Virus record (IMG/VR): IMGVR_UViG_2778261088_000010
Location: 1-32,475 of that record
Strand: one strand, 5' to 3'
DNA: 32,475 bases
From: a virus
Lineage: Duplodnaviria; Heunggongvirae; Uroviricota; Caudoviricetes
Shown here: positions 14,058 through 15,090 of the stretch, in pieces
Layout: every line of letters starts with the position of its first letter
Position numbering within the stretch: the first letter of the stretch is position 1
Made by a program: the position numbers and the translations under genes
The notes under the pieces: model-generated
What the model was told of the DNA's origin: nothing
Seen by the model: only the letters and a program-made list of their open reading frames with translations
The model's database searches: none

Positions 14058-14798
14058 TTATTTCGTAGGGAAAGATGTGATCACATCAACGATGGGCTGG
14101 ATTGAAAATCCAATACCAATTCCGGAGTTAGCATTCTGCGACATCATGTCCGAAACAATCTGTAGCGATCTACCAAACATGTCCGCCATTTGCCCGAAAT
14201 TAACACCCATGATCTCAACACTTCCATGCTGACTTGCTGAAGAAAGATATTGTCGCAGTTGGGCTATTTCTTGGCTGAAAGCATCAGCCTGATCGCCCAT
14301 TATATATCTACGCTGGGTGACGATACCTACTAACTCTCCCGAATCTCGATCAATAATAGGTCCTCCTGAGTTCCCCCCATTAACCATTCCATCAAGCGTA
14401 AATCGGCCATGCTCCATCGGTGCTGAAATAATTGCCTCACTTGTTAGTAACAGAGGTATCCCATGCGGGTATCCTGCAAAAATTACTTTTCTGCCCCTGG
14501 ATGGAGCAAACCCAGCAGATGGTTGAAGGACTGTTCTCCCGGCAGGAAGCTGTGATTGCAACCGCATAATCGCAAAGTCGTTGTCACCATCAATGTGCAA
14601 TATTTGAGCTTCGATATGCTCATTAACTTCAGTTTGAAGGATGACATGATTAATTTGACGCAGGTTCTGCAAGTCACAGCAGGTGGCGACAACATGCAAA
14701 TTGGTTACGACCAGATCTTCTCGCATGAAGCTGAACCCACTACCACGAGAATCACCTGCAATGACCTGAAACGTTGCGTTGGCTAAAGTTTGATGCAT
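14058..14798 (-). CDS. Trypsin-like (S1/chymotrypsin-fold) serine protease; probable moron
   Basis: The triad context is visible: TNLHVV (His), DNDFAIMRL (Asp) and GNSGGPIID (Ser). No N-terminal signal peptide is evident. A GGAG RBS precedes the ATG at 14798. The gene looks AT-richer than the flanking phage genes. Confidence 0.7.
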   Translation of the reverse strand: MHQTLANATFQVIAGDSRGSGFSFMREDLVVTNLHVVATCCDLQNLRQINHVILQTEVNEHIEAQILHIDGDNDFAIMRLQSQLPAGRTVLQPSAGFAPSRGRKVIFAGYPHGIPLLLTSEAIISAPMEHGRFTLDGMVNGGNSGGPIIDRDSGELVGIVTQRRYIMGDQADAFSQEIAQLRQYLSSASQHGSVEIMGVNFGQMADMFGRSLQIVSDMMSQNANSGIGIGFSIQPIVDVITSFPTK

Positions 14799-14919
14799 CG
14801 ATTTTCTCCGATACCGGTGAGTGAAAATTCATAATGGATTCATCCACCAGTTTAATTAATGAGATACATCAATTCACACGCAAAATATTCAACGCATCAA
14901 TCAGCTCGTTTTATTTTTG

Positions 14920-15090
14920 AACTGAGCTCAATTTGAGCACCAATGCACATGAGTCATCGGTGGTTTCGCTTTTGATGACCACCAGCTCAAGAACCTCACC
15001 CTCTTGCGGGATTGCATTTCCCACGAACAGGTTTTTTACCTCGTTGATTGAGTTGGTAACCGAGATAAACCCACAGTCTTCTTTTTTCAT
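14920..15090 (-). CDS. Possible small protein (56 aa) upstream of the protease
   Basis: Found by hand translation ([40 protein letters not shown]...), with a GAGG motif about 12 nt upstream. It is below the ORF-track size cutoff and has no recognisable family. Confidence 0.25.

Follow-up and report, generated by a model that had tools for sequence, protein, structure and literature searches.

Introduction

In the known cases of bacterial protease immunity, the protease is coupled to a large sensor (STAND NTPases, helicases, reverse transcriptases), and protease-driven immunity is an emerging theme common to bacteria and eukaryotes. The Lit protein of the e14 prophage is a zinc metalloprotease that cleaves EF-Tu when the Gol peptide of phage T4 appears, and so aborts infection. 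Here we analyze a two-gene cassette, encoding a 246-residue trypsin-like serine protease and a 59-residue protein, on a 32,475-nucleotide stretch of viral DNA (Caudoviricetes; IMG/VR record IMGVR_UViG_2778261088_000010, positions 1 to 32,475), referred to below as the window. A first-pass annotation, made from the sequence alone, had described positions 14058–15090 as a cytoplasmic serine protease carried as an accessory gene between the lysis genes and cos; these bounds comprise exactly the protease gene and the small open reading frame (ORF). The protease belongs to an uncharacterized stand-alone family with its own helical insertion in loop L2, which in enterobacterial prophages comes with a partner gene and a leader of its own. 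We tentatively propose that the cassette acts in conflicts between phage and bacterium or between phages.

The closest described systems are retron type XI, Avs1b, protease-type LmuA, and the trypsin-HamA of the Hachiman trypsin-MBL system (HamMAB), which, like the window protease, have a cytoplasmic trypsin-like domain, used in their case against phage. For HamMAB, proteolytic control of immunity by the trypsin-like domain has been shown experimentally, the protease activating the effector by cleavage (bioRxiv 10.1101/2025.09.03.673762). Unlike the proteases of these four systems, the window protease is a stand-alone chain of 246 residues, to which neither a reverse transcriptase nor a STAND NTPase, a helicase, or an MBL nuclease is fused or adjacent, and its sole conserved partner is a 59-residue protein without a known family. 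The parallel with Lit drawn in the first-pass annotation holds as an analogy, in that both appear to be cytoplasmic proteases of defective lambdoid prophages and the resemblance would be functional only; it does not extend to homology, since Lit is a zinc metalloprotease whereas the window protease is a trypsin-fold serine protease that gives no match to the Lit model in PADLOC. A resemblance of concept, with no sequence relationship, also exists to BstA/aba, in which the defense gene of a prophage has to be accompanied by a linked element so that its own phage is spared (bioRxiv 10.1101/2020.07.13.199331); a comparable self-immunity role for the spacer and small ORF of the cassette would be hypothetical.

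Results

The Protease Has an Intact Catalytic Triad and a Predicted Helical Insertion in Loop L2

The protease ORF (14798–14058, minus strand; RefSeq “S1 family peptidase” WP_044064376.1) matches the Pfam family Trypsin_2 (PF13365) over residues 19–159 (E = 3.7e-20; 73.6 bits, cut-off 27.6). The triad named in the first-pass annotation is present in canonical order as His35 (TNLHVV motif, codon 14696–14694), Asp74 (DFAIMRL motif, codon 14579–14577), and Ser144 (GNSGGP motif, codon 14369–14367), all on the minus strand. In an alignment of 33 family sequences extending down to 40% identity, Asp74 and Ser144 are invariant and His35 is kept in 32, the exception being the Salinisphaera protein, which has an arginine at that site. 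Among solved structures, the profile of this alignment comes closest to HtrA-family proteases, with all three catalytic motifs aligned. An AlphaFold2 model (mean predicted local distance difference test score (pLDDT) 86.4, predicted template modeling score (pTM) 0.79) resembles, by Foldseek, the protease domains of DegS-deltaPDZ, HtrA1, and DegQ (E~1e-12, 18–25% identity); a fold search of BFVD returned generic trypsin folds alone (11–25% identity). The conserved motifs and the model together show that the protease is intact and, as judged from sequence and predicted structure, catalytically competent.

In the model, two long helices (residues 168–190 and 201–222) lie between the strand that follows the catalytic serine (156–163) and the GIGIGF strand (227–232); residues ~165–225 are thus modeled as a two-helix hairpin of ~55 residues inserted in the HtrA loop L2. 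The first of these helices falls within one of the most variable parts of the protein (171–190), the others being residues 41–70 and the C-terminal tail. The highest conservation is found in the active-site half (101–150) and at residues 221–230. The first ten residues (MHQxLANATF) are near-invariant from Met1 and are modeled as a packed helix. In one family member, from Photobacterium sp. (P0111, 272 residues), the protease domain is followed by a SEC-C-type zinc-binding motif (PF02810) at the C-terminus.

The Protease Is Distinct from HtrA/DegP

The N-terminus of the protease has neither Lys nor Arg within residues 1–8 and lacks a hydrophobic core, and so has no signal-peptide-like start; this call is based on N-terminal composition, hydropathy, and the conservation from Met1. 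There is likewise no membrane segment, the maximum Kyte-Doolittle value (window of 19) being 1.24. These features predict that the protease is located in the cytoplasm, as the first-pass annotation had it. No PDZ domain was matched in Pfam, and in the model the chain ends 15 residues past the last barrel strand.

The likeness to HtrA, DegP, DegS, and DegQ (MEROPS S1C; TIGR02037, TIGR02038) comprises the trypsin-fold domain, the His-Asp-Ser triad, and the GNSGGP and GIGIGF motifs. In contrast to these proteases, the window protein has no signal peptide, anchor, or PDZ domain, possesses the ~55-residue L2 hairpin, and is encoded on a prophage or mobile element and not in the core genome. Its scores against the NCBIfam models for DegP, DegS, MarP, and HhoA are an order of magnitude under the cut-offs (Do/DegP, 48.6 versus 416.2; DegS, 25.7 versus 422.95; MarP, 59.5 versus 250). 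Because it has no PDZ domain, no export signal, and only sub-threshold scores, the protein has an HtrA-like protease domain yet is not a member of HtrA/DegP by that family's defining organization. Neither a signal peptide nor an HtrA-type domain organization, which would have spoken for a housekeeping-type enzyme, was found, and the catalytic residues are conserved. The first-pass annotation had also posed a choice between an HtrA/DegP-like protease and a defense-associated trypsin-like family; in the searches the domain is HtrA-like and stays under the HtrA cut-offs, and its PADLOC similarity is to protease domains of defense systems.

The best of these PADLOC matches are to the retron type XI reverse transcriptase-protease (4e-15), Avs1b, PDC-M35A, and an LmuA variant (range 4e-15 to 1e-3), and they span the protease domain only. 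No reverse transcriptase, STAND NTPase, LmuB/C, or HamAB is fused or adjacent to the protease, its neighbors in the window being rha, the 59-residue ORF, a terminator, and the terminase genes, and neither the window nor any of the related loci examined has an MBL-fold nuclease gene beside it. The main texts of the DefensePredictor study and of a domain-centric defense screen make no mention of trypsin-like stand-alone proteins.

Distant Relatives Occur in Several Phyla, Some beside Immune Genes

A scan for distant relatives, using one genome for each of 185,579 species, returned 24 loci, 16 of which contain clear family members (33–75% identity). These are found in Gammaproteobacteria, Campylobacterota, Deferribacterota, Bacteroidota, Planctomycetota, Chloroflexota, Firmicutes, and others; the distant stand-alone relatives, from several phyla, are 33–46% identical to the window protease. 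Several lie next to genes with roles in immunity. In a metagenome-assembled genome of a deltaproteobacterium, the protease gene stands between an upstream ORF, taken as hsdM on the basis of the third type I methyltransferase match in a pooled scan, and hsdS, and in Bacteroides it directly follows hsdR and an hsdM/S fusion. In Pirellulales the protease gene comes directly after a TIR-domain gene, and in Pseudohongiella two genes after one. The Limibacterium gene precedes that of a KAP-family NTPase, and the Salinisphaera gene lies beside those of an HNH_5 protein (nuclease) and a 295-residue ORF. A PADLOC scan of 105 pooled neighbor ORFs of the distant relatives added only type I restriction-modification matches. 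Further settings include an integrative island (four loci, L120–L123), with integrase and AlpA genes, next to smpB, and two metagenome contigs (L124, L125) in which the protease gene is a solitary insertion between housekeeping operons.

In Enterobacterial Prophages a Small Conserved Gene Precedes the Protease

The first-pass annotation noted a small ORF just upstream of the protease gene on the same strand. The ORF is real, but encodes 59 residues (15090–14911, minus strand) and not 56. Its product is acidic (pI 4.65) and has 51 homologs, nearly all of exactly 59 residues and 75–100% identical, in Escherichia, Klebsiella, Citrobacter, Enterobacter, Leclercia, and Buttiauxella. When 1.84 billion representative proteins were searched exhaustively with a profile, only 8 clusters came back, all of similar short proteins, and no match was obtained in Pfam, PHROG, NCBIfam, or PADLOC. 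Pairwise ratios of nonsynonymous to synonymous divergence (dN/dS) of about 0.13–0.2 imply a coding gene under purifying selection. An AlphaFold2 model of low confidence (pLDDT 66.7) has its N-terminus disordered, then a short helix, and a β-hairpin at the C-terminus. A 74-residue ORF upstream of a 77%-identical protease (locus L049) has a similar-looking motif, but was rejected as a homolog (hhalign probability 0.2%).

Linkage between the two genes, which the first-pass annotation had proposed to look for in related prophages, is borne out: in 24 of 32 IMG/VR family loci, all on viral contigs, the small ORF starts 292 nt before the protease start. In Citrobacter freundii prophages a 59-residue ORF lies at the same distance upstream of a protease 59% identical to that of the window, and in Klebsiella michiganensis a 63-residue relative of the small protein is followed by a 246-residue Trypsin_2 protein and then a Terminase_2 gene. 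The small ORF is absent from the other 8 loci and from all non-enterobacterial relatives, and is therefore no obligatory antitoxin.

The two genes also have separable histories. Between locus L055 and the window, the small ORFs are near-identical in DNA (synonymous divergence (dS) 0.03), whereas the proteases have 62% amino acid identity with saturated synonymous sites; in L043 the pattern is reversed, with 61% identity (dS 1.7) for the small ORF and 93% (dS 0.17) for the protease. In both loci the small ORF occupies 3709–3888 and the protease starts at 4001. These mosaics show that the two genes are exchanged independently around a conserved spacer, and imply recombination within or near it. 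Since many loci do without the small ORF, and its alleles combine freely with those of the protease, a role as cognate antitoxin is unlikely; more likely, the small protein is a modulator that acts on conserved surfaces of the protease (such as an inhibitor, decoy, or adaptor).

The Intergenic Leader Is Conserved and Predicted to Fold

The 112-nt spacer between the two genes (14799–14910, minus strand) contains the Shine-Dalgarno sequence of the protease gene (GGAG, 7 nt before the ATG). Spacer identity is 70–96% across loci whose flanking genes differ at 63–84% of synonymous sites; the spacer thus outconserves the synonymous sites of both its neighbors, and is therefore itself under selection. 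The predicted fold has a minimum free energy of −35.1 kcal/mol (z = −3.5), and none of 200 shuffled sequences was as stable; in its outer 12-bp helix, UUGAUGCGUUGA pairs with the protease start region UCGAUGCAUCAA. Neither RNAalifold nor explicit pair counting detected covariation beyond that in shuffles, and for this reason the structure, suggested by thermodynamic stability and sequence conservation, is treated as a lead only. A search of Rfam assigned the spacer to no family; a lone sub-threshold snoRNA match inside the protease gene is taken as chance.

Downstream, an intrinsic-terminator-like hairpin and T-run (14025–14006, minus strand; scan match GGCCACGCATATGTGTGGCT+TTTTATTG) lies 33 nt past the protease stop codon and marks the 3′ end of the cassette. 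A GC-rich hairpin and T-run is found 3′ of the protease in most related loci, with differing stem sequences. Promoter candidates picked out by eye in the spacer lack key −10 positions; a promoter departing from the consensus may lie there.

The Cassette Is a Rare Mobile Insert at the Lysis-Terminase Junction

The gene order, all on the minus strand and read 5′ to 3′, is holin (17436–17110), GH24 lysozyme (17106–16630), Rz-type lysis protein (16646–16185), rha (15971–15429), the 59-residue ORF, the protease, a Nu1/DUF1441-like gene (13403–12846), and the GpA-type large terminase (12837–10738). From this order, cos is likely to lie upstream of the Nu1/DUF1441-like gene. The accessory slot assigned in the first-pass annotation is therefore correct in kind, but Rz and the cassette are not adjacent: between them lie an amber-interrupted rha, a fragment of an IS100 end, and a 3′ remnant of Rz1.

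Shigella phage POCJ13 aligns with the window at 13709–13973 and 15289–16142, with ~8 bp between the two blocks, and Sf101 and CUS-3 likewise match the flanks only. Relative to a POCJ13-type backbone, the insert is 1315 bp long (13974–15288, minus strand). Of the marks of a moron given by Hendrix and colleagues, extra DNA between otherwise adjacent genes and a terminator of its own are found here; for a further one, a promoter of its own with expression from the prophage, the consensus scan gave no sigma-70-type site. The cassette is a rare mobile accessory insert, a moron as the first-pass annotation had proposed. Of 5426 complete E. coli genomes, 21 carry the insert as a whole, and none of the 50,697 deposited phage records was matched by the protease in tblastn. 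Its G+C content is 0.41–0.46, against ~0.50 in the terminase genes. The lambda bor/lom-type morons and the rha moron share with it the slot between Rz and cos, presence or absence between collinear phages, and a terminator; they differ in that their products are unrelated and that no promoter of its own was identified for the protease cassette.

The upstream edge of the insert is formed by an ~80-bp, istB-proximal fragment of an IS100 end (IS21 family; 15208–15288), which is 95–96% identical to IS100kyp-type elements in about 2900 E. coli genomes. The fragment lies where the backbone downstream of rha meets the cassette, and may be a scar of the event that delivered the latter. Adjoining it is a putative 3′ remnant of an Rz1/o-spanin gene (about 15122–15215, minus strand). 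This segment aligns with the sequence just 5′ of the small ORF in Citrobacter prophages, where a called 65-residue gene ends 43 nt before the small ORF, and its translation resembles the tail of an ORF in locus L036 that overlaps an Rz-like gene; the Rz1/o-spanin identity of the segment and of the related ORFs is that suggested by these resemblances. Given this match to the segment in front of the small ORF in Citrobacter, the cassette seems to derive, through recombination, from a phage whose Rz/Rz1 genes it followed directly.

Prophages with differing holins, endolysins, and terminases (Nu1/GpA, Terminase_2, HK97-type TerS) carry the protease at this same junction. In several of them the cassette genes begin 43–65 nt after Rz/Rz1; for example, in two loci that lack the small ORF (L066 and L068), 65 nt separate the protease start from the stop codon of an ORF that overlaps an Rz-like gene in the fashion of Rz1. 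In other prophages a 485-residue family-2 glycosyltransferase-like gene adjoins the protease (L036, 5826–7855, where it has a 196-residue partner; L066, 5720–7177), and in a Buttiauxella prophage (L003) a 52-residue glycosyltransferase-like fragment (4670–4828) lies upstream of the protease. The presence of these genes implies that the junction gathers several unrelated morons.

Discussion

A Role in Phage Conflict Compared with Other Explanations

We favor, with reserve, a role for the cassette in conflict between phage and bacterium or between phages, as a module for abortive infection or superinfection exclusion; we consider this reading somewhat short of an even chance. It is favored because of the immune-gene neighborhoods of distant relatives, the similarity to protease domains of defense systems, the patchy mobile distribution, and a fast-evolving surface combined with a conserved catalytic core. 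A second PADLOC defense candidate (PDC-S59) in this prophage also counts in its favor. The abortive-infection role suggested in the first-pass annotation gains from the first two of these grounds, the neighborhoods and the similarity, and stays a proposal. A number of observations weigh against a conflict role. Immune-gene neighborhoods were found in only about 6 of 15 distant loci, a count made without a statistical background model, and some relatives lie among housekeeping genes, e.g. between nadD-like and bioD-like genes. PADLOC has no model that the cassette matches as a system, neither a sensor NTPase nor a separate effector is linked to it, and our full-text literature search, RefSeq accession included, found neither a paper on the protease family nor a published test of it. 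The partner is missing from a quarter of the viral loci (8 of 32) and all distant relatives, and the independent exchange of alleles speaks against tight co-evolution at a toxin-antitoxin interface. In the cassette, no sigma-70-type promoter was detected by the consensus scan, and the 43–65 nt gap to Rz/Rz1 fits expression with the late operon rather than from the lysogen.

These last points bear on the principal alternative, a late gene of benefit to the phage, expressed on the Q-dependent late transcript with the lysis genes. Such a protease might counter host immune or stress proteins, or remodel the proteome before lysis, with the small protein as a specificity or timing factor. The cassette is always on the late-operon strand, often close behind Rz/Rz1 and with no promoter-like site found within it, and in the window the Rz1 remnant has moved along with it. 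Nevertheless, the distant relatives are chromosomal, in restriction-modification operons or beside TIR genes and not in phages; a generally useful lytic function would be expected to be commoner than a gene with no homolog among the 50,697 deposited phage genomes; and the cassette ends in a terminator, as do morons that are expressed from the prophage. We regard this explanation as the less probable one, with perhaps a minor share of the likelihood. Should it hold, this would be a rare case of host factors being acted on by a phage-encoded protease. A toxin-antitoxin or addiction module, in which a labile 59-residue antitoxin would restrain a toxic protease and so stabilize the prophage rather than provide immunity, is unlikely. 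A small acidic gene does precede a larger enzyme gene, at fixed spacing and with conserved linkage, and IetAS, a precedent for a serine-protease toxin, is cited in a passage of PMC13069673. But the protease stands without the small ORF in a quarter of the prophage loci and in every distant relative, alleles of the two genes shuffle freely, the 112-nt spacer is unlike that of overlapping or tightly coupled type II pairs, and Pfam detects no antitoxin DNA-binding domain in the small protein. As for an HtrA quality-control protease of the housekeeping type, or a virulence moron acting outside the cytoplasm, the closest solved structures and NCBIfam models are indeed those of HtrA, DegP, DegS, and MarP; the absence of signal peptide, membrane anchor, and PDZ domain, the scores far under the cut-offs, and the rare, patchy occurrence on mobile elements all speak against both, and neither is supported. 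The virulence role raised in the first-pass annotation found no evidence in a protein that is apparently cytoplasmic and without secretion signal, and we consider this last pair of explanations very improbable.

A Possible Mechanism

If the cassette does act in phage conflict, the following sequence can be envisaged. A protease that is competent, as judged from its sequence and model, would act in the cytoplasm, where it would be held inactive or at a low level. The 59-residue partner could provide this restraint as an inhibitor, decoy substrate, or adaptor on conserved surfaces, and the structured leader may limit translation of the protease. An infecting phage would then lift the restraint or bring an activating ligand, with the fast-evolving residues 41–70 and 171–190 as the likely recognition surface, and the freed protease would cut an essential host or phage protein, such that infection stops. 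The partner and leader could spare the carrier prophage during its own lytic growth. A more specific form of this proposal, which we put forward as a speculation with the chances against it, is that the 246-residue protein is a minimal one-chain sensor-effector, in which the L2 hairpin senses a phage protein and the protease cuts an essential target, the 59-residue protein and the leader that occludes the start codon constituting portable self-immunity and dosage control.

If a conflict role is correct, a 27-kDa protease with a partner of at most 6 kDa would be among the smallest of such immune systems, and would provide an easy system in which to study how a cytoplasmic trypsin-fold enzyme stays silent and is then released by infection. 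The cassette also marks the lambdoid Rz-cos junction as a hotspot for conflict genes, beyond the bor/lom-type morons.

Other Accessory Genes of the Window

The rha gene upstream of the insert is broken by a single CAG-to-TAG amber change (15756–15758, minus strand), because of which it appears as two ORFs of 71 and 94 residues in the window. Over 561 aligned bases, nothing else distinguishes the gene from the rha of E. coli NZ_LR882493, which is intact at 543 nt.

Three plus-strand ORFs (249, 114, and 205 residues; 17837–19564) lie antisense to the late operon, between Q (19590–19949) and the holin. In RefSeq one of them is assigned to the TIGR04255 family and two are hypothetical proteins, and none of the three has a Pfam or PADLOC match. 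The block, which is present in 92 of the 5426 E. coli genomes, is probably another accessory cassette.

A 431-residue protein (29807–31102, plus strand), carried by the same prophage as the protease cassette, matches the PADLOC single-gene defense candidate PDC-S59 (E = 2.7e-73). Its gene adjoins an integrase gene (31252–32475).

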